Assembly: GCA_965227835.1 (NCBI GenBank) | Contig: OZ245768.1 | Coordinates: forward strand, 1,020,001-1,052,000 | Length of the DNA stretch: 32,000 nt | From: Candidatus Saccharimonadota bacterium | GTDB taxonomy: Bacteria; Patescibacteriota; Gracilibacteria; BD1-5; UBA6164 | Direction of reading: 5' to 3' | In this document: piece after piece, positions 10 to 31,414 of the stretch | Layout of the letters: every line of letters begins with the position of its first letter | Position numbering within the stretch: the first letter of the stretch is position 1 | The notes under the pieces: model-generated | Databases searched by the model: none | Seen by the model: the letters and a program-made list of their open reading frames with translations, nothing else | Told to the model about the DNA's origin: nothing | Translations under genes and position numbers: made by a program

Positions 10-1320
10 ATGCATAAAAAATTAAATGCTTTTACATTTGTGGAGTTGATGATAGTTATAATAATTTTAACTACAATATCAATGATATGATTTTCATCCT
101 ATACTTCTCACCTATCTTGAGTCAGAGATACAAATAGAATTTCACAACTAAGAGCTATCTCTGAATCTTTAAAAATATATTCTGTTTTCAACAGACTACC
201 TTACCCAGATGAAAGAGTAAGCATAAAAAATGATACAGATTATATAGCATATCAAGGTTATTTATGAGAAGAATCAATAACTCAAATAAAATATAGCTGA
301 GATTGAGTGGATCCCGAAAATTGAACTCCATTTTCATATTACTTAGATTCAAATAGGAAAAATTTTCAGCTTATGAGTTTTTTAGAAAACAATAAAGATA
401 AAATTACTTATAAGGAAACAGTTTCAAAGACCAATGCGATTGATTATGATTCAATTTATCCTTATGTAGATTGAAAAGATTTATGAATAATGACATGAAC
501 TTGAGATGATTTAAATAAACCAATTCAAGAACTATGAATAGATGAAATTGATATTTCTTCTGTTTCAACCCCTTATGTATCTTATATAAATAACGACCTT
601 AAATTGGTTTGAAACTCAGAAGTTTTATATGTATTAGAATGAATAAAAGATGCTTGAGGTATATGAGCCAACTGTAAAGAACTCATAGATTCAAGACCAA
701 GCTTGGAATGAAAAGATTGATATTATCTTATAAAACCCAGATGAGAAAAAGCTTTTATAGTACATTGTAATATGAGTCTTTATGGTTGATGATGGACTAG
801 ATATACTGAATATAGCTCATCTATGTACTATGTAAATGAACTTTGAGATTTAGTAGAAAATTTTGATGAATTATTTTATTCATATAAAAGAAGCTGAATA
901 AATGATAAATATGCTTTTAGATTTAAAAAACTTTGGACTAAACAATGTGGAGATGAACATTGACATAAATCTGATTTAAAACTAGCACTTAGAGATTATG
1001 TTGACCATATAGAAAATGAATCATGGTGATATTGTTGACGGAATAGCACAACTGGAGATGCAAATGATATAGAAATAGAGAAAATAATAAATTTTGAGTT
1101 TAAAAATGATGATTGTGTTACCTGAAACTTAAATAAAACAAGTGGTCGGAATTACTCTTGGTCTAGTGTTACAACATCAGATTGAAAATCTGTGGGAGAT
1201 CATGTACATCGGATTTCTAATCATACTGTACTTTTTTGACCAAGGTGAAACTGATCATCCCGGTGTGCCTGAGCAAATTCATGACCGAGTGCATCTGAAG
1301 TATATATGTATTTGAGATAG
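10..1320 (+). CDS. Type IV pilin-like protein (prepilin N-terminus) with fibrinogen-like C-terminal globular domain
   Basis: ATG at 10, with an in-frame TAA at 4-6 just upstream, and TAG at 1318-1320. The frame is open only if the many in-frame TGA are sense. The N-terminus MHKKLNAFTFVELMIVIIILTTI is a prepilin cleavage/methylation motif plus hydrophobic helix. The C-terminal half contains ANCKELI..DGYYLIKP..AFIVHCNMSLYGGGWTRY, which resembles the start of fibrinogen-related domains. Confidence 0.8.
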
Positions 1321-6590: not shown

Positions 6591-6845
6591 TTATTTCTCC
6601 CTGAAGTTACATTTACGAAAACAAAGAGCTTTCACTTCCGCTTCCAGCTTAAGAATATCCAACTTGTGCTGTTTCAATCTGAGCTGGTTCAGTCTGACAT
6701 GTTTAAGGGCAAGTTCTAGTTTAGCAATTTGACCTTGAACAGACTCCACAGATGTAGAATTTAGTTCATGCAAGTTAGATTCGGAGGCACAAACAGAACC
6801 AATGGATAATAATCCAAAAATAATTGCAATAAACATTTTTCCCAT
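6591..6845 (-). CDS. Small secreted coiled-coil protein (cassette A), TGA-free
   Basis: 84 aa, open in the standard code and ending in TAA. It has a signal-peptide-like N-terminus (MGKMFIAIIFGLLSIGSVCA|SE) and a strong RBS (AAAGGAGTAAGAT-ATG). The N-terminus is homologous to the 7083..7646 product. Confidence 0.7.
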   Translation of the reverse strand: MGKMFIAIIFGLLSIGSVCASESNLHELNSTSVESVQGQIAKLELALKHVRLNQLRLKQHKLDILKLEAEVKALCFRKCNFREK

Positions 6846-7082: not shown

Positions 7083-7646
7083 TTAAGGATGATTAGCCTT
7101 CAATTCGTCCAAAGATAAACATTTAATCTTAACAGCAATTACTTGTTCTCTCCCTTTTCGAGTATAATTCCTAACTTCCAAAATTTCGCATATATCTTCT
7201 TTATTTATGTAATCTTCACCTGATTTGTTATCGGCTAAAAAATCCCAATATGAAGAATAAATATTCACCTTATAATCTGATTTACTGATTGGTGAATATT
7301 GAACTATATCTCCTTTAAACGGGTAAACACCAAGCTTATACCTATATGGATAAATAGAAGTATTATGATATACATTTGAATATAAATCAATATTATCAAT
7401 GCTAGAAGATTCTTTTAACATTTTAAAATATGTACTATCTTCTATCCAAAACATTGCTCTATCAACACCTACACTTGCTGTAAAACTTCTCGAGGCATAC
7501 TCTACCCAAAAGCCCCCAGAATTATCTTCTTCAAAATTTGATTGAAAAGATTCATCCGCAGCATTTGAATAAAATGAATTGATTTCAAAAGCATGAACAG
7601 AATTAATGTATAATAATCCAAAAAGTAACATAAATATTTTTCCCAT
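7083..7646 (-). CDS. Secreted protein (cassette B), TGA-free
   Basis: 187 aa, open in the standard code and ending in TAA. The signal peptide is MGKIFMLLFGLLYINSVHA|FE. All 9 Gly codons are GGN and none is TGA. The RBS AAAGGAGTAAGAT-ATG is identical to cassette A. Confidence 0.75.
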   Translation of the reverse strand: MGKIFMLLFGLLYINSVHAFEINSFYSNAADESFQSNFEEDNSGGFWVEYASRSFTASVGVDRAMFWIEDSTYFKMLKESSSIDNIDLYSNVYHNTSIYPYRYKLGVYPFKGDIVQYSPISKSDYKVNIYSSYWDFLADNKSGEDYINKEDICEILEVRNYTRKGREQVIAVKIKCLSLDELKANHP

Positions 7647-7932: not shown

Positions 7933-9136
7933 GGGTCTGTTGCGTTTTGATTTTAAAAAGAGTTTTAATTAAGAAAAGTACTAAATAGATGAAAGATTTA
8001 TAAAATTCATCTATTTTTTGTTAAATTATAGCCATTTTTATATATAATTTAGGATTTTAGACAAAATCCACCTAAGGAAACTAATCTAAGCTATTGGGAT
8101 TTCCTCTAATACAACCAATCTTTTGAGATTAAAAGATATAGCTTCCATAAATGCAGTAAACTGGTTTTTTACTACAGATTTATATCTCACTCTATGATTC
8201 ATTTTTGAAAATACTCTCTCATAAGGAGATCTAAGTTTAGAATAAAATCTATCTTTATCCTTATCCTTCTCTTTCATATTATTCTTCTTTATTGCACATA
8301 AATGTAATCACTTCTTTTTTGATGATAATATAGCTGGTCAAATACAATATCACTTATCAGCATATACTGCTCATGAATTTGGTAATACATGTTTCATTCA
8401 CTTTGCATCTGTTACATTAGCTTGAGTTATAGCTATCTTGTTTATCATTCAAGATTGCATATCAACACTAGCGTGTTTTTTATATCCATACCAAAATTTA
8501 TTTTTTCACTTAGATCAAATTTTAGCTTCCTTATCATTAGCAACTTTTGGAAGAGTTTCATTATTCATTTTTTCATATCATTCTTTTATTCATTTATCTC
8601 TTTCTTCCCATAAATTAGCTTTAGTAACTAAATGAGAAGCATCTACAAATGTAAACACTTCACTCATATACCCCTTATTTGATAATTGATTTTTTAAATC
8701 TTCAAATATCTTTGATAGTTCATTTGTTCATATCTTTTTTCTTGCTCTTGAGAATATACTATAATCTGGAGTTTTATCTGTTAATTTAAATCAGCAAAAC
8801 CATTTACCAGCTAAATTTTCTGCAAGATATTTCTCTAACTCTCTATCTGATAGATCTTCCATAAACTGGATTAGTAAACATAGAAATAATTTTTTTACTC
8901 AATATCATACATGAGTTTTTCATAGATCTATATTTTTTAGTATTTTATTTACTCAATCAAAGTTCCACAATTTCTTAAATTTACGATATTGATGATTTTC
9001 TGGAATTAGCTCGTTTAGGATAACAAAACTTATTTGATTTGATTCTCACATAGGTATTTTCTTAGAATATAATTACTATCTAATTATATCTCTTTTTTCT
9101 CTTTTTAATAGCTAAAATCTAATTTGCAACAGACCC
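7933..9136 (-). mobile_element. IS5-family insertion sequence (1204 bp), intact
   Basis: The terminal inverted repeats are GGGTCTGTTGC (7933-7943) and GCAACAGACCC (9126-9136). A direct TTTAA duplication flanks the element (7928-7932 and 9137-9141). It encodes one DDE transposase. Confidence 0.85.
8086..9051 (-). CDS. IS5-family DDE transposase (DUF772 N-terminal domain plus DDE_Tnp_1-like domain)
   Basis: 321 aa, checked block by block, with more than 20 in-frame TGA = Gly. The motifs are LFLCLLIQFMEDLSDRELEKYLAENLAGKWFCGFKL..PDYSIFSRARKKIG, then D (FVDASHL), D (VYADKGY) and E (RSPYERVFSKMN). The track ORF 8086..8277 is its C-terminus. Confidence 0.88.
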
Positions 9137-19999: not shown

Positions 20000-20239
20000 T
20001 TTAAAAAATGATTACAAATTAAAGTTAGAGGTTAAACTTTTCTAAATTTTTTTAGATAGTTTAACTTAACCTCTTCTTAGAATAAACTTTTCAAAAAAAT
20101 GATGTTTTTCAAAAAAAGCTTTAGCAAGGATTATATAAAAATTATATTAAATGCAAATTTTTTTATTATCAAGTGTATTTTTAGGGTTTTATAAGGTCGT
20201 AAATTTAGGAAAAGTAGGAAATTATTTTAGATTTTATAC

Positions 20240-20512
20240 AAAAAAAGCCCCCCATCGAGGGGGGCAAGACACGAATATAGATTCGTGTGCAAACCTACAA
20301 CATTTAAACTGTCGATGTTAGAGTATTCAGCACGTTAAGCTGTTAAGATTTGACTTTTGACTGTTTTAAAAATAAAGAAACAGTCTCGTACTTAAACATA
20401 TGCCTATGAATAATTTATTCATCCTCAAACATTATATTGACACATCAAAAATAATTAAATTCTTGATATTAAGTGCGTCTCAAGTTGTTTTACAATTTCG
20501 AATCGAACAACT
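20240..20512 (-). ncRNA. Unclassified structured RNA, paralog A (about 270 nt)
   Basis: It lies between its own promoter (20519-20546) and a GC-rich intrinsic terminator: GCCCCCC-ATCGA-GGGGGGC at 20247-20265 plus a U7 run. Several internal hairpins are visible, for example ACACGAAT/ATTCGTGT, GACTGTTT/AAACAGTC and AGTTGTT/AACAACT. No ORF is conserved with paralog B. Confidence 0.6.
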
Positions 20513-20518
20513 GCAAAT

Positions 20519-20546
20519 ATTATAATTTTTATATAGCTAAAGTCAA
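20519..20546 (-). promoter_or_regulatory. Sigma70-like promoter of RNA A
   Basis: On the minus strand, TTGACT (20546-20541), a 16-nt spacer, then TATAAT (20524-20519). Confidence 0.65.
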
Positions 20547-20741
20547 ATTTTTGCAGAAAAATTTTCATCATCCCTCAAAAATAGCTTTGTAAAGAGGTAA
20601 TCATTGTTTTATTCTTTGTTCTTAAAGAAATTCAAAAGCAATATTTTAATAAAAATATCTGTACTTTGTATAATTTTATTGTACAATACATTATCTGATC
20701 TTGAGTGCCTTGTTATAAAAATAAAACCATGGCATATAGTT

Positions 20742-21023
20742 AAAAAAAGAAAAACCTCGATTGTTCTGCAGAACAATCGAGGCTGGCACGGATCAAAAAT
20801 CCGTGTGCAAATCTAAAAAATTTTGGTTTCAGGTATTAGGTATGCTAAGTATTTAGATTTGACTTAAATTTGGCTACCTCAACTACTGTAGCACTAATTT
20901 ACTTAGACGATACCCGGAAATGATTTTTTTCAGATTCATCCCCAACCTTTTTCTTCAATCCCCGAACCGTTAGAATCTGAATTTCTAAATTAGGTTCGTT
21001 TGAATCGTTTTGGTTAACAATTA
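20742..21023 (-). ncRNA. Unclassified structured RNA, paralog B (about 280 nt)
   Basis: It has the same architecture as RNA A, with a promoter at 21030-21057. The terminator is CCTCGATTGTTCTG/CAGAACAATCGAGG (20755-20782) plus a U-rich run. It shares 3' motifs with RNA A: AAGTCAAATCT, TTTGCACACG and a hairpin before the terminator. Confidence 0.6.
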
Positions 21024-21029
21024 AAAGTA

Positions 21030-21057
21030 ATTATAATTTTTATATAACTAAAGTCAA
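21030..21057 (-). promoter_or_regulatory. Sigma70-like promoter of RNA B
   Basis: On the minus strand, TTGACT (21057-21052), a 16-nt spacer, then TATAAT (21035-21030). The sequence context is almost identical to the RNA A promoter. Confidence 0.65.
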
Positions 21058-21222
21058 ATTTATTACAAAAAACTTTTTTATCATCTCCAAAAATACCTTT
21101 ATAAAGCAATAATCTTTATTTTATTTTTTATTCTTGAAGACATCCAAATGCTATATTTTAATAAAAAATATCTGTACTTTGTATAATTTTATTGTACAAT
21201 ATATGTTTGTTTTTTATAAAAA

Positions 21223-23138
21223 CTAGCTAGGAGAAGTACTTACTACTTGTTCTTCATAATAGCTAGCAAGAACCTGTATTCATACATGTTCCATTCAAGC
21301 AAAAAATAATCATTGACCTACAGAGGCATTTAAAAGTATATATTTTTCTTGTTCTGTGAGTTTAAATATATTTTGAAGTGAATCTATAGAGGCACTGGAT
21401 TGCTTTAAAAGAAGTTGGATTGATGAGTTTGTAACTATAGGTTTTCAGTAAGTTGAGGCTATGAAATCTTCTATATCTTGAGTTATAGTCGTAATTCCTA
21501 GATTATATTTTCTAGCTCTTTTTACCAAACCAAAAAGAAATTTAGCAGAATCATCATGTTGCATAACATTCCAAGCTTCATCTATAACTAAAAGTCTTTT
21601 TTTAGAACTAGATCTTACCTTATTCCATATATAATTTAGTATTACATACATGGCTGTAGGTCTCATTATATCACTTAAATCTCTTACAGAAAATACTTGT
21701 AGTCACTCTTTTAAATCTATATTTGTTTCTTTACTAAAAATACCTGAAAATATTCAATTGGTATATTTTTCAAGTTTCAAAACTAAAGGGCCAGCTCAAT
21801 CCATAGTTTCTAATACATCTTGTAAGTCTTTCATTATAGGCATCTGTTTACCAGTAGCATCGTCATTTTCCATAGTAATTCATTTTAGACTATATGCAGT
21901 TATTATAGCTTTTTCCATTACAGATTCTTCAGTAGCATCAAGTTTACCAAGCATCAAATTCATAAGTCAAAGTACAGATATGACGGCAGATCTCAAAAGA
22001 TCACCAGGTTTTTCATCTCTATCTTTTAATCATAAAGGTAAATCAAAGGGATTTATTCTTTGGTTTGAGTTTAGTGATACATCCAAATAACTTCATCATA
22101 CAGTATCTATAAGAGCTTTATATTCATTTTCAGGATCTATAACTATTACATCAACTCACATCATCAAGCTTCTTAGTATTTCAAGTTTTACAGCAAAAGA
22201 TTTACCTCAACCAGATTTAGCAAATACACACATATTTGCATTTTCACTTTTAAATCTATCAAAAAGTATCAAAGAGTTGTTGTGTGTATTTACTCAATAC
22301 AATATACCGTCATCATGTGAAAGTGTAGAACTTGAAAATGGGAAAGTAGTTGAAATACCTCATGTAGACATATTTCTGTATACTCAAATTTCATCTTTGG
22401 CAAAAGGTCAGGTTGAAACAAAACCTTGCATACTTCTAAGGTAAGCTTGTTTTTGTAATACATTTCTTCCAGAAAGTATGGTTTCTATATTTTTCAAATT
22501 TTATCTAGTTGATCTAAAGAATCAGAATATATGGTTATATATATTGATAGGTGAAAATATTTTTCTTCTCATCTAGTAAGTTTGTGTCTAAGTTCTTCTA
22601 CATCTTGGATTTGGGCATCTATGGCAGGATCATTTATCAATCATTTATCTGCATTCATACTTCTTTCAGAATTTAGCTGAACCAGTCTTTTTTTTAGGAA
22701 TTTTTGGACAAATGCTGAATCAATAGGATATGTAAAAAGACTCATATCAAATTTTACATCTAGGTTTATCAGAGGAGAAAGCCAGTTTCATTCTAAAAAT
22801 GTAGGGTATGAATATACAAAAAATGTTTTTGCATATGTATTGTTTATATGAATATAGTTTGGTGCTTCTTTTAGAAAAGCTGGAGATATAGCATCTTTCA
22901 GAAAAGCTAGAGCTTCTTTATATTCTTTCTCTGTATCTAGTAGCTTTTGTTTTTCTTCTTTACTTAATTTTTCATCTGTTTTTTCAACTTTTTCTATTGT
23001 TTCTTTTGTTTTTTTTGTTTCATTTTCTTCTTTTTGTTTTTTAAGTGTATCCTTTGGTATATCTACTTCAAATCAACTTATGTCTCCAGTATATCTTTTT
23101 TTTACGAGTTCAAGCAATTTTTCGTTTTTGTTTGACAT
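21223..23138 (-). pseudogene. VirB4/TrbE/CagE-family type IV secretion ATPase, interrupted by a 1-nt frameshift near 22496-22502
   Basis: The N-terminal ORF runs from ATG 23138 to TAG 22485-22487 (217 aa). The ATPase frame opens after TAA 22501-22503 and runs to TAG 21223-21225. Walker A is FAKSGGGKSFAVK, Walker B is RLLVIDEAW, and IDPENEY, INPFDL and ITTITQDIEDF are also present. The track ORF 21445..21666 is an internal fragment. Confidence 0.8.
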
Positions 23139-23631: not shown

Positions 23632-23808
23632 TTAAATTTGTATTTCACAGGTATTGTAAAGAGTAATTCCTTTATGTCAATATTTTTTAAGTTTACGCTT
23701 CTTTCGAATCCTTCCATCAAGAAAACAACCTAAAGAATAACCTATTATAGAACCGAAAATAAACACAAACAAGAATATGTAAATTAATTCTTTCAATTCA
23801 TACTCCAT
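23632..23808 (-). CDS. Mini-protein with one TM helix (43 aa to the first TGA, 58 aa under code 25)
   Basis: The RBS AAAGGAGTTCTTTGAAT precedes the ATG at 23808. The product is MEYELKELIYIFLFVFIFGSIIGYSLGCFLDGRIRKKRKLKKY. TGA is at 23677-23679 and the next TAA is at 23632-23634. Confidence 0.5.
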
Positions 23809-23896
23809 ATTCAAAGAACTCCTTTTTAAAAAGAAATGATAAATAAAAAAGTGAAATTTAACTTGTAAATTTCAAGGAGTTTTTAATAAATAATTT

Positions 23897-24370
23897 TTAT
23901 TTGTCAAAAATTTTATCAGTGAAAAGTATTCAATCTAAATGATCTATTTCGTGTTGTACTATTCTAGAGGAGAGTTCTCCTAAAATTAAGACTCTATCTT
24001 TAATCTTATTATCTTTGTAAGATATTTTTATACTATTATATCTTTCCACCTTTCATTTTTCTCAGGGAAGTGACAAACATCACTCTTCACATACATTTGT
24101 TTCTAAAGAATGGTCTAATATCTTTGGATTTATCATCATAATTGTAGAAAAATCTTTATCTTCCCAATTTTTTAATAAACTCACAACTATTATTCTCTTA
24201 TTATATCATACTTGAGGTCCTGCAAGTCATACTCAAGAATTTTTAGGGTTTTTGATATATTTAATCATTTCTTTACCTAATTTAATATATTTTTTATAAT
24301 CTTTAGCTTGTATTTCTTCGCTTATTTTTCTAAGTATTTCATTTTGATTTCCAGTTTGTATAGATAGCAT
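23897..24370 (-). CDS. def: Peptide deformylase
   Basis: 157 aa with all three signature motifs: GVGLAGPQVG, EEGCLSLPG and QHEIDHLDG. Confidence 0.94.
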
Positions 24371-24412
24371 AATATATTTTAAGATACATATAATAATAAA
24401 TACTATTATAGT

Positions 24413-24440
24413 AAAAAAATCTAGCCTGGCTAGATTTTTT
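24413..24440. terminator. Bidirectional-looking hairpin terminator downstream of the giant repeat gene
   Basis: AAAAAAATCTAG-CCTGG-CTAGATTTTTT, that is, an A-run, a stem-loop, then a T-run. Confidence 0.6.
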
Positions 24441-24523
24441 ACTTTTGTTATATTCTAATTACATATACTGTTAACCTATTAATTCCTATCCTGTATTTAT
24501 TTTGTATTAACATTATTATGTTT

Positions 24524-27500
24524 TTATTTCGTTTTAGTCATCTCAATCATTTTTCATAAAATATTTCATCTGTTGTTTATTATTACATCATAACCCAATA
24601 TCTTAAATCATTTATCATTGTCATTTGAATCATTTATAGGATTTAAATATATTCATTTAGAACTAGCACCATCTATTCATTTCAAACTATAATTAATAAC
24701 CTTATTTGTCTCTAAATTCTCCAACATAAGTATGTAATCATTACTTCTAAAATCAAATGTATAACTTCAAGTCGTATCATCTTTTAATTCAAGGTTTCAT
24801 CAAGTATCAATACTTATATATCATTCTCAATTTATTGATCAGGTAAGTGTCTCTAATCTCTTGAATTCCCTATATTCTTTATATCTCTCTTTATCTACCT
24901 TAATCAATTGTAATTCTGCTTGTCATGAAACTTCCAAATGAATAAATCAATTTTCTACTTCTCATAGTTTTTCGTTGAAAGAATCTGTATTGTTTGGATT
25001 GTCTTCTATGTATTTTTCTATTATGTAGTTATTCCAAAATATATTTTTTGTAACTAATGGGTAAACATATCAATTTATAGTTTTTCTAGTTTCATTGTCA
25101 TTGTCTTCATATTCTAAGGGTTTTACTATTCTTACTGTATCTGTTTCTTCAAGTTCGGTAGAGTTATTGGCATAATCGTAGGCTATTATTTTGTGTTTGT
25201 ATCTATGTCAGTTTTCTCCATTGTCTTTTGTGTAGGTCATTTCAAAAAGATTGTCATTAAGGTCTATATTGTCTTTTGTATATATCTTTTTCCAAGCTCA
25301 TAGATTATCAGATTCATATAGTTCTATTTTACTTAGTTTGCTTCATCATGTGTCTTTTGCTTTAAATGTTATGTCATAACTTCCTGTCTCTATGGCTCAA
25401 AGTACATAATTTAAATATAGACTGTCTGGTTTTATTTTATCTAGTTTGTAATGTCAGTTCCAAGTATATGTGTTTCAAGCTCAGTCTTTGGCACATAGAT
25501 AAAGTATGTGGCTTCCATTTGTTTTTTGAATTATAGTGTTTCAATTATTGAAATTGGTTCAGTCCCAACAGTGTGAATTGTTCCATCTGTATTTCTTTAC
25601 TGATAATCCACTTCATCATGTGTCTGATACTGATAGTTTAATTGATATGTCTGAGTTCTTCCATGATGCTGAATTATTGTCGGCTGATGCCTTAGGATTT
25701 GTATTGTCTAGTTTTAATACAAAATTTCATGTACTACTGGCATTTCAAGCATTATCCCATGTTTGGTATCTAATGGTGTTATTGTAGTTGCCAGATTTTG
25801 TTATAGTTGTTCAGGTTGTTCAAGTTGATAGATTACAACTGCTTCACTCACACCATTTTGTTGTCTTTACTCCAGATCATCATGAATCACTTGGGGATAA
25901 AGTTATGGTTCTTGTTCAGTTCTTCCAGATATTATTGTAAGAGTAGTTATTACTGACTGTGGGTTTGGTATTGTCTAGTTTTAGTAAAAAACTTCATATA
26001 CTACTTGTATTTCAGGCATTATCCCATGTTTGATATCTAATGGTGTTATTGTAGTTGCCAGATTTTGTTATAGTTGTTCAGGTTGTTCAAGTTGATGGGT
26101 TACAGTTATCTCACTGACACCATTTTGTTGTCTTTATTCCAGATCATCATGAATCACTTGGGGATAAATTTATGGTTCTTGTTCAGTTCTTCCAGGTATC
26201 ATTGTAAGAGTAGTTATGGCTAACAGTAGGTTTTGTCTTATCTATTCTATATTTTCAACTCCAGGTTTGTGTGTTTCAGGCTCAATCTTTGGCACATAAA
26301 TACAGTGTGTTATTTCAGGCTGTACTTCTAGTTATAGTATTTCAGTTATTGAATGTAGTTCAATTCCAACAGTCTGAATTGTTCCATCTGTATTTCTTCA
26401 ATGATAATCAACTTCATCATGTATCCGATGCCGATAATTTAATTGATATGTCTGAGTTCTTCCAGGTTGTGCTTGAATTTGTTGCCGAAATACTAGGTTT
26501 AGTCTTGTCTAGTTTATATTTTCAACTCCAGGTTTGTGTGTTTCAGGCTCAATCTTTGGCACATAAATACAGTGTGTTATTTCAGGCTGTACTTCTAGTT
26601 ATAGTATTTCAGTTATTGAATGTAGTTCAATTCCAACAGTCTGAATTGTTCCATCTGTATTTCTTCAATGATAACCCACTTCATCATGTATCCGATGCCG
26701 ATAATTTAATTGATATATTTGAATTCTTCCAGGTTGTGCTTGAATTTGTTGCCGAAATACTAGGTTTTGTCTTATCTATTCTATATTTTCAACTCCAGGT
26801 TTGTGTGTTTCAGGCTCAATCTTTGGCACATAAATACAGTGTGTTATTTCAGGCTGTACTTCTAGTTATAGTATTTCAGTTATTGAATGTAGTTCAATTC
26901 CAACAGTCTGAATTGTTCCATCTGTATTTCTTCAATGATAACCCACTTCATCATGTATCCGATGCCGATAATTTAATTGATATATTTGAATTCTTCCAGG
27001 TTGTGCTTGAATTTGTTGCTCAAATACTGGGTTTTGTATTGTCTAGTTTATATGTTCAACTCCATGTCTGTGTGTTTCAAGCTCAATCCCTAGCACATAA
27101 ATACAGTGTGTTATTTCAGGCTGTACTTCTAGTTATAGTGTTTCAATTATTGAATGTAGTTCAATTCCAACAGTCTGAATTGTTCCATCTGTATTTCTTC
27201 AATGATAATCAACTTCATCATGAATCTGATACTGATAACTTAATCGATATATCCGATTTCTTCCATGAACTACTAGAATTTGTCGCTGAAATACTAGGCT
27301 TGGTATTATCTATCTTTAGATTAATACTTCATACAGTACTAGAATATCACATGTTATCCCATGTTTGATATCTAATTGTATTGTTATAGTTTGCATATTT
27401 TGTTATGGTTGTTCAAACATTTCAGTTTGATATATTACAAGCACTTCACTCACACCATTTGGTAGTCTTTATTCCAGATAATGAATCTTTCGGATATAGA

Positions 27501-29311
27501 GTTATGGTTTTTGATGAACCATTTTTCCAAATATTACTGTAAGAATAATTATGAGTTATACTAGGAATATTTCTATCTATTCTATATTTTCAGCTCCATG
27601 TTTGCATATTTCAAGCTCAATCTTTAGTACATAAATATAGAGTATGATCTCAACTGTTAGCTTGAACTATGTATTTTCAATTATTAAACATAGTTCATCA
27701 ATTCCAACAGTCCGAATTATTCCACCTATATTTCTTTAATGATAATCCACTTCATCATGTGTCTGAAGCTGATAATTTAATTGTGATATTTCAGTATTTC
27801 CATGAGTTGCTAGAATTTGTTGCCGAGGTAGTAGGTTTTGTCTTATCTAGCTTATATGTTCAACTCCATGTCTGTGTATTTCAGGCTCAATCCCTAGCAC
27901 ATAAATATAGTGTATTACTTCAAGTTGTACTTCTAGTTATAGTATTTCAATTATTAAATGTAGTTCCATTCCAGCAATTTGAATTGTTCCATCTATATTT
28001 CTTTAATGATAATCAACTTCATCATGTATCTGATGCTGATAGTTTAATCGATATATCCGATTTCTTCCATGAACTACTAGAATTTGTCGCTGAAATACTA
28101 GGCTTGGTATTATCTATCTTTAGATTAATACTTCATACAGTACTAGAATATCACATGTTATCCCAAGTTTGATATCTAATAGTATTGTTGTAGTTTGCAT
28201 ATTTTGTGATGTTTGTTCAGATTGTTCAAGTTGATGGATTACAGCTACTTCATTGACACCATTTTGTTGTCTTTATTCCAGATAATGAGTCTTTTGGATG
28301 TAGGGTTATGGTTTTTGATGAACCATTTCTCCAAATATTACTGTAATAATAATTATGACTAATTATTGGGGATGTTCTATCTATCCTATAATATCAAGAC
28401 CATCTTCTTGAATTTCAAGCATTATCTCTAGTACATACATAGAGTATATTATTATAGTCTGAAGTTTGTGTTATTTTATTTCAATTATTAAAATAAGTAC
28501 CTCCATTCCAACAATCTGAATTATTCCATCTATATCTTCAATCATAATAATTATAAACACTTCTATATCTCCACTCTGAGGTGAATCAAAGGCTATATCT
28601 ATATTTTTCTGTATGAGAATAAACTTTATATTTCGATAATCCACTTCATCATGAATCTGAAGCTGATAAAGTAATTGATATATCTGATTTTCTCCATGAA
28701 CTACTAGAATTTGAACCATAACCACTAGGCAGTGTTTTATCTAACCTATATGTTCAGTTCCAAGTTTGAGTGTTTCAAGCTCAATCTTTGGCACATAAAT
28801 ACAAAGTACTGCTTCAATCTGTACTTTTAGTTATAGTGTTTCAATTATTGAATGTAGTTCAATTCCAACAATCTGAATTGTTCCATCTATATTTCTTTAC
28901 TGACAATCAACTTCATCATGAATCTGAAGCTGATAAAGTAATTGATATATCTGATTTTCTCCGTGAACTACTAGAATTTGTCGCTGAAATACTAGGTCTT
29001 GTATCATCATATTTTCTACATTTTATTTTTGTTCAATTTTTTCAAATAACTCTGTCTTCACCATCACACATAGTCATAGTTCCTTTGGAAGTACTTTTTT
29101 CATAATCCGAACTTGAATAATAATTATGGGTATTGCAAGTATAAGATGTTCAAGATTTATATGTATCTGAGTCTCTAGGAACACTACTTGATCAACAATC
29201 TGTACCCTCATTTGGTCATCATCAATAAATAGTTGTTAAAGATGCTGAAAAAGCTAAATTATAAAATGACAGAGTAAAAAGAAAGAAGAATAATAAAAAT
29301 AATTTTTTCAT
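24524..29311 (-). CDS. Giant secreted surface protein (1595 aa) made of tandem Ig-like/beta-sandwich repeats
   Basis: ATG at 29311 and TAA at 24524-24526. I checked the frame at 28918, 27361, 26263 and 25618, and codon by codon from 25618 to 24524. The signal peptide is MKKLFLLFFFLFTLSFYNLAFSA. Type-A repeats of about 89 aa read KPSISATNSS..W.NSDISIKLSASDTGGSGLSLKKYRWNNSDCWNGTTFNNGNTI....G.NTLYLCAKDGAGNTQTW. Type-B repeats read PSI.HNYSYSNIWKNGS..ITL.P.DSLSGIKTTKWC.G..CN....G...TITK..NYNNTIRYQTWDN.G. The conserved G residues are often TGA. The long plus-strand track ORFs here are antisense artefacts. Confidence 0.85.
26261..27328. repeat. Four head-to-tail 267-bp DNA repeats, three of them nearly identical, inside the giant gene
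   Basis: The unit boundary motif CCAGGTTTGTGTGTTTCAGGCTCAATCTTTGGCACATAAATACAG recurs at 26261, 26528 and 26795, and in diverged form at 27062. The period is exactly 267 bp (89 codons). Differences cluster in three short patches. Confidence 0.9.
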
Positions 29312-29451
29312 AAAAATTAAGAATATAAATATAATATACTCTTATTCTCTCACAATTATTAAAAAAAAACAAAAAAATGTATGATTTTATTTTGAAAAAG
29401 AATTAAAAAATCTATTTAGAGAGAAAAAATAATAAAAAAATTTAAAGCTTT

Positions 29452-30024
29452 TTAATTTGTCTCAACATCACTTTGATAATTGTCATTATTAAAATTATCA
29501 TCAAATCAATCAGATTCATTATAAGAATCTTCACTTATAGTAATTTTTGTATTATCGGTGGTAAAATTTCAAATGAAATCAGGTCATGAAGATAGATTAA
29601 TGGTCTGATTATTATAGGTTGCTTTGGAAAATCAATCATGATTATCATTAAAAAAAATTTCTAAATCTTTGTTGTTGTAATCACTTAAACATATAACTTG
29701 TCCTTGTTTATCAAAAAGTGCAGATTTAATTTCTTCTCTTTTGGTAGATCCACTCATAACTATAAGTTCACTACCTAAAACAGAACCTGGACAAGATATG
29801 TTGTCTACAAATCCTCATCAGTCATTGTTTATTTCAACCACATCTTGGCTAGATGAATCTGTATTTGATTTTATATTAATATAAAACTCTTTTTCTACTT
29901 CTATACTTTGAGAATTTATCATAAGACTTACATGATTATTCATAACTACTAAAGCTAGAATTAAAGCAACACTTGTGAGTACTATAGAATACATTAAAAC
30001 ACTGGCTTTTTTTATATTTTTCAA
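29452..30024 (-). CDS. Hypothetical protein with N-terminal hydrophobic helix (possible minor pilin or pseudopilin)
   Basis: TTG start at 30024 as in the track ORF (an ATG at codon 11 is an alternative) and TAA at 29452-29454, 190 aa with TGA = Gly. The N-terminus is MKNIKKASVLMYSIVLTSVALILALVV. The C-terminus is acidic and Asn-rich. Confidence 0.55.
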
Positions 30025-30065
30025 TTTTCAAAATGGTTTAAATAAAATAAACTTTATAAAGATAA

Positions 30066-30689
30066 CTAAAAATTAAAAACTATTTTTTCTATTTTCAAGT
30101 TTCAAAGAACAGAGTATTTTTCTCAGTTTGTTTCTTTCTCATAATCAATATTTGAATATATAATTACTTCAATTATCTTTCATCAATTATATATATTTAA
30201 TTGGAAATCTTTTAATATCATATCTTCAAATATTTCATCTCTGTTAAAGCTATATTCATAGATTTTATCTGGGCTTGTATTTAGCTCTCAAAGTTCAGAA
30301 GAGCTTATTTTTCTATGGGCTAGTACTTTTTCTGAAATATTATCAATGTTGCCGTTTGGATCTACTTTTAAGGTATCTTTATCTATGAGAGCAAATATAT
30401 ATCATCACTGTTCTGGTTCTCCTGGGTCTGTTTTTAAAATCAATATATCACTTCAATCTCACTCTAAGTTATCTTTTAAAATATCACTTAATAAATATTT
30501 TTGCCTTAGAGTTCTTATTTTATACTCTACCTCATATAGAGATATAATCAATTTGGTTTTTTTATTTGTATATGATATTTCATCAAAAATACTTGCTAAG
30601 TAATTCATCAAAAACAAAAGTACTATTGCACTTATAGTTATAGCTAATATGAGTTCTACGAGTGTAAAAGCTTTTTTAGATTTAATCAT
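30066..30689 (-). CDS. Prepilin-type N-terminal cleavage/methylation domain protein (pilin or pseudopilin)
   Basis: ATG at 30689 and TAG at 30066-30068, 207 aa, translated codon by codon. The N-terminus MIKSKKAFTLVELILAITISAIVLLFL is a canonical type IV pilin motif. Confidence 0.8.
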
Positions 30690-30761
30690 ATTTTTGATTT
30701 TTTATTATCATTTTTTATAATTATTATAATAAAAATAGGGTTAATTTAAAAATTTATTTCG

Positions 30762-31199
30762 TGGATGATGAATTCAATAAAAAAAGCAGAATCTCTAGCT
30801 TGAATAATTATAGGGGTTTTTATTTTGTCTTTTGTTTTATTGGGTATTTGAGCTCTTGTTTGAAGTTCTAGGGATATAATTGATAATTTTGATAAAAAAA
30901 TAGATTTAGATCTCTTAATTTATAGTTCTAATTCTGTAGTTGGTAGTATGGATCTTTCAAATTTATCTGATGGTGATGAGTTTTATTTACACAGAGACAC
31001 TGTTAATTGAAATTTTGATATCTATACATGATCAAATAATTCAAACTATCAGTATATAGATAGGCATTGATATAAAGTAGATGATATAAATAGTTTTGAA
31101 GGAGATATATATAGTAGGATTTTTAATGCTACAAAGGTTGAACATAATGGTGAAGAGAAAATGTCTATAAAAACTGTAATAGATAGAATATCAAAATAA
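30762..31199 (+). CDS. Hypothetical membrane-anchored protein (pseudopilin-like N-terminus)
   Basis: GTG at 30762 and TAA at 31197-31199, 145 aa. The ATG codons at 30766 and 30769 are out of frame and hit TAG at 30796. The N-terminus is MDDEFNKKAESLAGIIIGVFILSFVLLGIGALV. The start codon choice is uncertain. Confidence 0.5.
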
Positions 31200-31414
31200 A
31201 TTTTTTGACTAAAAAATTAGGAAAAAAGGGATTATTTTTTATTTAAATAACTCTTTTCAGAGTGCTCAGCAAAATTACTTCGTTCAAAATAAAGGTAAAG
31301 GTTTTTTAGATAATTTTTTGTTTAGTTATTCTAAGACAAAAAATCTCGGTGAAAATTGGTAAAAAACTACTTTTTAATATATGCTAATTTTGGAAATCTT
31401 CTTTCAATATATAA

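Follow-up and report, generated by a model that had tools for sequence, protein, structure and literature searches.

A large repeat-protein gene inside a split pilin-like gene of a code-25 bacterium: a candidate pilus-docked adhesin

Within a 32,000-nucleotide stretch from Candidatus Saccharimonadota bacterium (contig OZ245768.1, positions 1,020,001 to 1,052,000 of the forward strand; hereafter the window), a 4.8-kb gene for a 1,595-aa repeat protein sits inside a pilin-like gene that is split at its interdomain linker. The last 197 residues of the product are the C-terminal domain (C-module) of a pilin-like protein whose N-terminal half (N-half) is encoded by the next open reading frame (ORF) upstream, and the gene therefore lies within the pilin gene, not merely beside it. 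The rest of the gene, which we call the cassette, is joined in frame to the C-module, and the whole encodes a Sec-exported protein composed of a signal peptide, a four-cysteine head, a stalk of 13 repeat units with a type-C unit, and the 197-aa C-module. We propose, with a probability of roughly one half, that this is a PilY1-like candidate adhesin in which the C-module would dock the head and stalk onto a pilin-like partner, the stalk being variable in length. Type IV pili have been implicated in how ultrasmall bacteria in the candidate phyla radiation (CPR) recognise and hold their hosts. The locus offers a specific pair for this role, a pilin-like N-half and a giant protein with the matching C-module, from a modular pilin gene that appears to have been split naturally, and its module moved onto a long repeat stalk, more than once.

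A repeat-protein gene inside a split pilin-like gene

Translation with table 11 yielded no long ORF at 24524–29311. When TGA is read as sense, a minus-strand frame is open over 24524–29341 and gives 1,595 aa from an ATG at 29311; the chance of 1,605 open codons at the given base composition is about 1e-53. The meaning of TGA was checked on uL2, encoded in the ribosomal-protein operon of the window, against solved uL2 structures. Seventeen of its 19 TGA codons pair with glycine, including those in the GGGH and HGGGEG motifs, and none (0/19) with tryptophan. The genetic code of the locus is code 25, in which TGA encodes glycine. Code 25 is the genetic code of Gracilibacteria and Absconditabacteria. 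An earlier reading of the same DNA (the original prediction) had assigned it to a CPR cell, which agrees with the Gracilibacteria-type code-25 bacterium indicated by uL2 and by the family distribution described below; the overlooked TAA or TAG that it named as a danger does not interrupt the frame 24524–29341, read on the minus strand with code 25. The repeat-protein gene has 129 TGA and 26 GGN codons. Its TGA share of glycine codons (83%) falls inside the range of the other multi-glycine genes of the window (22–89%, except for two TGA-free genes), and we therefore regard it as native to the recoded lineage.

Many public proteins of this lineage (P0001, P0002, P0006, P0113, P0121, P0122, P0279 and others) have been translated with code 4, with tryptophan at TGA. 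Using code 4 in place of code 25 lowers identities and hides domain hits. On the practical side, most database entries of the lineage carry the wrong code, which masks the relationships described here from routine annotation.

Residues 1399–1595 are homologous to a protein family (about 385 aa) that is confined to Gracilibacteria-type genomes, with 47 members in a word-indexed search and 256 cluster representatives in an exhaustive profile search. Most relatives encode the whole protein in a single gene, placed right behind a canonical prepilin gene. The N-half ORF is homologous to the other part of the same family (E=5e-64 against P0121). It covers residues 1–184, and the C-module residues 171–385, of the intact proteins P0121 and P0122, the two matches abutting within a few residues. 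The N-half is 56–63% identical to residues 1–174 of intact P0121 and of the intact protein of contig L004; with the N-halves that stand as ORFs of their own in loci L007 and L008 it shares 40 and 36% identity. The segment between the homologous halves (about 25118–29466) holds, in order, the N-half stop, a spacer, a new ATG with signal peptide, the head, the repeat array and the type-C domain (Table 1). Spacers lie at the same place in L007 (132 nt) and L008 (73 nt). A single polypeptide reading through from the N-half into the repeat protein was rejected because the spacer has several stops in both frames examined and the repeat protein has a conserved signal peptide of its own. At the cassette ends (about 29452–29466 and 25117/25118) we found neither a target-site duplication nor terminal inverted repeats, and a transposon-type insertion was dropped on that ground.

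We call the N-half pilin-like because of its lollipop architecture, its hydrophobic N-terminus and its kept position right after a gene that passes prepilin models. This position, directly behind the prepilin gene, is syntenic in six loci and places the N-half in a pilin cluster. The original prediction had noted pilin-like genes upstream of the repeat protein; the prepilin gene at 30066–30689 bears this out, but the repeat-protein gene turns out to lie within a pilin-like gene and not just next to one.

An AlphaFold2 (AF2) model of the intact relative P0123, with a predicted local distance difference test score (pLDDT) of 85, comprises a helix at residues 6–68 (63 residues), strands at 83–167 and a C-domain at 201–396, and hence the N-terminal helix, beta domain, linker and extra module of a modular pilin. 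Its low-confidence linker (170–200) falls exactly at the break point of the window, and its C-domain is modelled as autonomous (pLDDT > 90). In a second AF2 model (P0271) the C-module likewise scores above 93.

Table 1. Features of the locus; coordinates are positions in the window
Feature	Coordinates	Strand	Basis
Terminator-like palindromic hairpin, just 3' of the repeat-protein stop	24414..24440	.	Consensus match only
Coding sequence, 1,595-aa repeat protein	24524..29311	-	Frame open only with TGA as sense
C-module, residues 1399–1595 and stop; EYEDNDNETRK motif at start	24524..25117	-	Homology to pilin-like family
Type C domain (third repeat type), residues 1295–1398; linker VRIVKP at end	25118..25429	-	Similarity to P0113
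Array of 13 units, 267 bp (89 aa) each, residues 106–1294	25430..28996	-	Unit alignment, Tandem Repeats Finder, NF047446
Units A8, A7, A6, the three youngest copies	26231..27031	-	96.6–97.4% DNA identity
Tyr/Arg-rich in-frame insertion in A2, 33 aa (KYKVYSHTEKYRYSLGFTSEWRYRSVYNYYDGR)	28535..28633	-	Unit alignment
4-Cys head, residues 24–105 (82 aa; C39, C59, C82, C98; CRKYDD at end)	28997..29242	-	Alignment
Sec-type signal peptide, residues 1–23 (MKKLFLLFFFLFTLSFYNLAFSA)	29243..29311	-	Inspection and hydropathy scan
Spacer between N-half ORF and repeat-protein gene, 140 nt, AT-rich	29312..29451	-	Stops in both frames examined
N-half ORF, 190 aa from TTG 30024, ending ...DGFDDNFNNDNYQSDVETN*	29452..30024	-	Homology to N-terminal half of intact family
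Prepilin gene, 207 aa (MIKSKKAFTLVELIL...)	30066..30689	-	N_methyl E=4.7e-6; TIGR02532 21.5 bits vs cutoff 16.3
Divergent 144-aa gene, membrane-anchored protein, member of the syntenic cluster	30765..31199	+	Homology

Comparison with related loci, as the original prediction had advised, revealed both intact and split forms. Contig L004, from another sample, carries a 143-aa gene, a 207-aa prepilin, an intact 368-aa gene and then def (peptide deformylase). Read with code 25, the intact gene is 63% identical to the N-half ORF and, over L004 residues 171–363, 62% identical to the C-module. The neighbouring genes of the two loci are 58–68% identical; the halves are therefore as conserved as their neighbours and neither is decaying. 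Gene order outside the cluster is not conserved between the window and L004. With its gene intact, L004 represents a syntenic 'empty site'. The split arrangement (prepilin, N-half ORF, then a gene whose product combines signal peptide, head, repeats and C-module) recurs in L007 and L045 (both from Logan) and in L008, an NCBI metagenome-assembled genome. Their repeat proteins are of 790 aa with about five repeat units in L007, 675 aa with another mix of unit types in L045, and 305 aa with no repeat units in L008. In all four split loci (4/4) the N-half ends just after a near-invariant motif, DG.DD(N/D)FN(N/S)DN(Y/F/W), and the C-module opens with DND...R(K/S).I(N/V)GY, so that both linker motifs are kept. 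Given this conservation on either side, the break has always fallen in the short variable spacer between them.

The linker motif also recovered 35 species-representative genomes. The gene is fused in all 35; some of the copies contain about 600 nt inserted in frame, and head and repeats are absent throughout (0/35). Trees built by neighbour joining for the N-half and for the C-module, with three split loci included (window, L007 and L008), agree with each other. The window groups with the fused genes of L004 and L003 (100/100 bootstraps), L007 and L008 form a separate pair nested among fused genes (96/100 and 86/100), and a clade of the three split loci was recovered in 0/100. The split form is thus conserved, rare and polyphyletic, which implies two or more entries of the cassette into the same linker, or its lateral movement; otherwise at least four precise re-fusions would be required. 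A scan of IMG/VR with the family alignment gave no match, hence no sign of a phage origin.

Among fused members of the family, P0151, P0153, P0200, P0219, P0265, P0204, P0173 and P0246 have 160–300-aa inserts before the linker or 230–550-aa C-terminal extensions, and the scaffold of about 385 aa seems to accept extra modules repeatedly. Discoidin or carbohydrate-binding modules, considered as the inserts of fused variants of 540–690 aa, were not supported by Pfam; the matches obtained were a sub-threshold ArabFuran in P0200 and Fib_succ_major in the extension of P0204 (E=5e-14). On the JGI metagenome contig L044 (6115–8869), two fused pilin-like genes stand in tandem, the second with an insert between its halves.

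Head, repeat array and domain family

The signal peptide, already recognised in the original prediction, is the sole hydrophobic segment of the repeat protein in a hydropathy scan, and equivalent N-termini are present in the L007, L008 and P0269 proteins. The head can be aligned with the heads of the same three proteins with all four cysteines kept; Pfam and NCBIfam searches with it gave no match. As assembled, the array reads A1 A2 B1 A3 A4 B2 A5 A6 A7 A8 B3 B4 A9, in accord with the nine A and four B repeats of 267 bp first counted, with A units carrying a YRWNN motif and B units a TKWC motif. Tandem Repeats Finder detected the array with scores of 894 and 1907. Among units A6–A8, 12 nucleotide columns vary (codons 1, 4, 14, 16, 30 and 84–88), and stretches as long as 238 nt are exactly the same. 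The trio had been recognised as near identical, correctly, but had been placed at 26261–27061, 30 nt off the register in Table 1. The three patches to which its differences had been assigned fit roughly, except that the change at TGGSG is synonymous (GGG versus TGA) and codon 4 has a further S/G difference. Other unit pairs are also close (A3/A5 92%, B1/B2 88% and B3/B4 90% identical), and the blocks A1-A2-B1 and A3-A4-B2 are 83% identical, from which we conclude that the array grew by nested duplications. The in-frame insertion of about 31 aa proposed for one unit is confirmed in A2, where 33 residues replace about 2–3 (net +31 aa). In its general outline, an exported protein of near-identical repeats, the original prediction is upheld by the frame, the signal peptide and the unit identities.

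It erred at the C-terminus, where a unique region of about 300 aa had been expected. These residues comprise instead the type C repeat (1295–1398), which shares 41% identity with a tandem pair of domains in the giant relative P0113, and the pilin-like C-terminal domain (1399–1595); residues 1295–1595 have no Pfam or NCBIfam match. Inspection and hydropathy scanning of the repeat protein found no transmembrane segment or other known anchor. An LPXTG sortase motif and a C-terminal hydrophobic segment are likewise absent, and NPSTG strings occur only inside B units.

The repeats belong to a known domain family. NCBIfam NF047446 (OmpL47-type beta-barrel domain) matches 12 stretches of A and B units at 173.2 bits against a cutoff of 40 (E=1.1e-51), as the suggestion of an OmpL47-type domain had anticipated; on single units it scores 27.6 bits (A) and 34.1 bits (B), each under the cutoff. 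The Ig-like and cadherin-like alternatives did not hold: Pfam Ig-like (Big_x), cadherin and PKD models found nothing significant in the whole protein or in single units, the sub-threshold matches being Big_9 for one A unit (E=0.008, 17.5 bits, cutoff 23.6) and PKD_4 for one B unit (E=0.36), with no cadherin hit. Nor is the protein a member of the Leptospira OmpL47 equivalog NF047441 (61.4 bits, cutoff 250). A sequence search of the PDB with A-A-B units returned no related solved structure. Strands are predicted in the repeat part of the AF2 model of the homolog P0271, at a pLDDT below 50, and a beta-sandwich fold of the A and B units is no more than plausible. OmpL47 is exposed at the surface, with weak binding to host matrix proteins (PMC2935396). 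The A and B units of the window fit the same domain model as Leptospira OmpL47 and other NF047446 proteins, although the window protein is not an ortholog and differs in head, C-module and pilin context. Its source organism is probably monoderm-like, unlike Leptospira.

Large surface proteins full of homologous repeats are encoded by Paenibacillus, Gaiellales and others, and such repeats are common across many phyla. The nearest matches (about 40–60% identity per unit) are giant proteins of TGA-recoded genomes, translated in databases with code 4, which have another conserved C-terminus of about 800 aa and non-pilin gene contexts. The A units of the window are 59–62% identical to units of P0113 and 40–47% identical to those of L007; being nearer to P0113, they hint at exchange among surface-protein genes.

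Repeat content varies between loci; for the hypervariability put forward in the original prediction, the variation observed is that between species. Homologous loci of different species have 0, about 5 and 13 repeats, and members of the L007 clade, with C-modules 68–72% identical, still differ in repeat content. With its near-identical 267-bp units the array lends itself very well to unequal recombination. In-frame, domain-sized repeats that are nearly identical as DNA also encode the streptococcal alpha C/Rib, staphylococcal SasG/Aap and Bap proteins, and their expansion and contraction by recombination is established. The window gene shares this kind of repeat with them; its product, however, has no LPXTG anchor. 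Close orthologs were not recovered: the sister-strain contig L001 (98% identical) ends short of the gene, a GTDB scan with the 301-aa C-terminus had no match, and a JGI metagenome scan found one distant locus only. Contig L046 (1–1215) ends partway through the repeats of the homologous P0271 gene, from which it follows that such arrays fragment short-read assemblies. Sieber et al. (2019) described a hypervariable Gracilibacterium gene with 9-nt microsatellites that encode a Pro-Thr-Asp coil and vary synonymously (PMC6851277). Like the window gene, it encodes a repeat-bearing, predicted extracellular protein from the same phylum with a proposed attachment role (PMC6851277). Identity of the two was rejected, the microsatellite gene being unrelated in sequence and architecture.

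A candidate pilus-docked adhesin and competing explanations

Two known ways of decorating type IV pili frame our proposal. The carrier and effector logic of PilY1 and of modular pilins has been set out by Raynaud et al. (2021; PMC8179133): PilC/PilY1 proteins have a conserved C-terminal carrier and variable N-terminal effectors, and their presentation at the tip via minor pilins has been proposed. Gracilibacteria express type IV pili, and in Saccharibacteria such pili are required for host attachment (PMC11452946). The window protein resembles PilC/PilY1 in being large, non-pilin, Sec-exported and encoded with pilin genes. It differs in that the PilY1 beta-propeller (IPR008707) was not found in it by Pfam or NCBIfam, and its C-module (about 195 aa) is another kind of domain, rich in beta structure, that demonstrably stems from a pilin-like protein and for which docking is proposed by inference. 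The plan of modular pilins (S. sanguinis PilB and PilC, CofB of enterotoxigenic E. coli, GspK; PMC8179133) is matched exactly by the intact relatives of about 385 aa. In the window, by contrast, the module stands on a separate polypeptide behind 1,400 aa of head and stalk, and the N-half lacks a detectable class III signal or N_methyl motif. We met no report of a split modular pilin in the literature, in which no search was aimed at one.

By the Rosetta-stone principle, two proteins that occur as a fusion in certain genomes have a tendency to interact where other genomes encode them separately. We propose docking for this reason, and because adjacency and both linker motifs survive the fission, because the repeat protein has no other anchor, and because no terminator-like site lies between the N-half ORF and the repeat-protein gene. 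We postulate continued binding between the two former halves. The tail is probably a domain for docking, by which a long candidate adhesin is mounted on the pilus: acting as carrier, the C-module would attach the stalk to its pilin-like partner, or else to the complex of minor pilins at the tip of a Com-type type IV filament, and the cysteine-rich head, borne tens of nanometres out by the stalk, would be the point of contact with a host cell. The protein would then work in the manner of PilC/PilY1, as a non-pilin adhesin whose C-terminal carrier domain is conserved and whose N-terminal effectors vary, and its stalk length could shift through unequal recombination between near-identical 267-bp units. 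If docking is real, the C-module would be a new carrier domain for pilus-presented adhesins, letting stalk length and head vary without touching the pilus machinery. A broader version, that a modular pilin has become a two-piece PilY1-like system at least twice at the same linker, with the C-module as new pilus carrier domain, and so provides an exchangeable, length-adjustable giant adhesin on a Com-type pilus for host capture, is possible and we put it forward tentatively. If true, it would present a natural fission linking both known ways of type IV pilus decoration, and a concrete candidate for CPR host attachment.

Several observations weigh against the docking proposal. Pilin hidden Markov models (HMMs) gave no match to the N-half of the window, to P0123 or to P0127, and the N-halves of L007 and L008 have faint ComGG/ComGE matches only (E=0.04–0.06). 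Foldseek searches of the PDB with the two AF2 models retrieved neither a pilin nor a confident structural relative of either domain, the best hit being a weak beta-jelly-roll resemblance (E=6.5e-4, template modelling score < 0.2). The stalk is modelled with poor confidence, the A/B-unit part of P0271 having a pLDDT below 50, and we infer the adhesin role from architecture only. The C-module could also be a ligand-binding effector instead of a carrier. Such a role is central to a competing explanation, in which the repeat protein is a free-standing secreted or surface adhesin, the C-module its ligand-binding or self-anchoring end, and the adjacency of the N-half a historical trace. In modular pilins the appended C-terminal module is indeed normally the effector and not the carrier (PMC8179133), the C-module occurs with several other N-terminal contexts, and its weak fold resemblances are to beta-sandwich binding domains, for example Cry toxin domains and a Bacteroides surface glycan-binding protein. 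Against this, the repeat protein has no anchor of a known type, and the N-half lies immediately upstream in 4/4 deeply diverged split loci, with a terminal motif kept that would be unexpected in the remnant of a tether, while elsewhere the window and L004 have not kept a common gene order. We judge a free-standing adhesin rather unlikely, though it is the chief competitor of docking.

The split might also be plain disruption, in which a fragment of a giant surface gene was inserted, the pilin-like gene was inactivated and the in-frame 3' half persists as an undecayed passenger. An in-frame junction arises by chance one time in three, the closest relative L004 has the intact gene, and the A, B and type-C units resemble those of giant P0113, whose own C-terminus (about 800 aa) differs. 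Yet the same architecture recurs in the separate clade of L007, L008 and L045, both halves are conserved like the neighbouring genes, both linker motifs are retained, and the cassette comes with a start codon and a signal peptide of its own; transposon-type junctions were not found. Disruption is thus improbable. More improbable still is an assembly artefact, with a chimeric join or a misassembled array behind the fusion or the unit count. Such arrays do break assemblies, as where the P0271 gene stops at a contig edge, and the count of 13 units is that of the assembly, but both junctions lie in unique sequence, the frame is intact over 4.8 kb, A6–A8 each carry distinct substitutions, and independent assemblies from other samples have the same architecture. 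The docking proposal remains the reading to which we give about a one-in-two chance.

Neighbouring genes and other features of the window

The prepilin gene behind which the N-half lies is syntenic in L002, L003, L004, L007 and L008, and a T2SSE ATPase is encoded near the split locus in L008. The product of the divergent 144-aa gene is 58% identical to that of the 143-aa gene of L004 and 37% identical to that of a 155-aa gene in L008; searches with it gave no family. The hairpin just beyond the repeat-protein gene is the only terminator-like site in 23800–31300. A promoter scan gave as many matches as shuffled sequence would be expected to give, and tRNA and Rfam scans of the window had no match.

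At its left end (10–1320, plus strand) the window encodes a 436-aa modular pilin with a prepilin-like N-terminus (MHKKLNAFTFVELMIV) and a fibrinogen-like YCDxxxxGGGW domain, which scores 35.2 bits with NF040941 against a cutoff of 30. Two paralogs of this pilin (484 and 439 aa) adjoin the split locus in L008.

The two TGA-free genes (6591–6845 and 7083–7646, both on the minus strand) encode small signal-peptide proteins with no TGA among 13 glycine codons and no Pfam family, and could be of foreign origin or under a special codon constraint. They adjoin a DDE transposase gene (8086–9051, minus strand; DUF772 and DDE_Tnp_1) that uses TGA at 17 of its 20 glycine codons; being TGA-rich, this insertion sequence element is native to a code-25 lineage. 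A VirB4/TraG-type P-loop ATPase of only 402 aa is encoded at 21223–22431 on the minus strand (TraG P-loop E=6e-27). Before it, in another frame of the same strand, lies a 217-aa ORF (22485–23138), and the stop-to-stop frames of the pair overlap at 22485–22500; the two may together be a type IV secretion ATPase that has been split or frameshifted. The adjoining 1.2 kb (20046–21222) has no credible gene and no tRNA or Rfam match, and contains repeats of about 190 bp (20506–20688 resembles 21016–21212). The corresponding part of the sister-strain contig (L001 1–1600) is longer by about 930 bp, with more copies of the same repeat.

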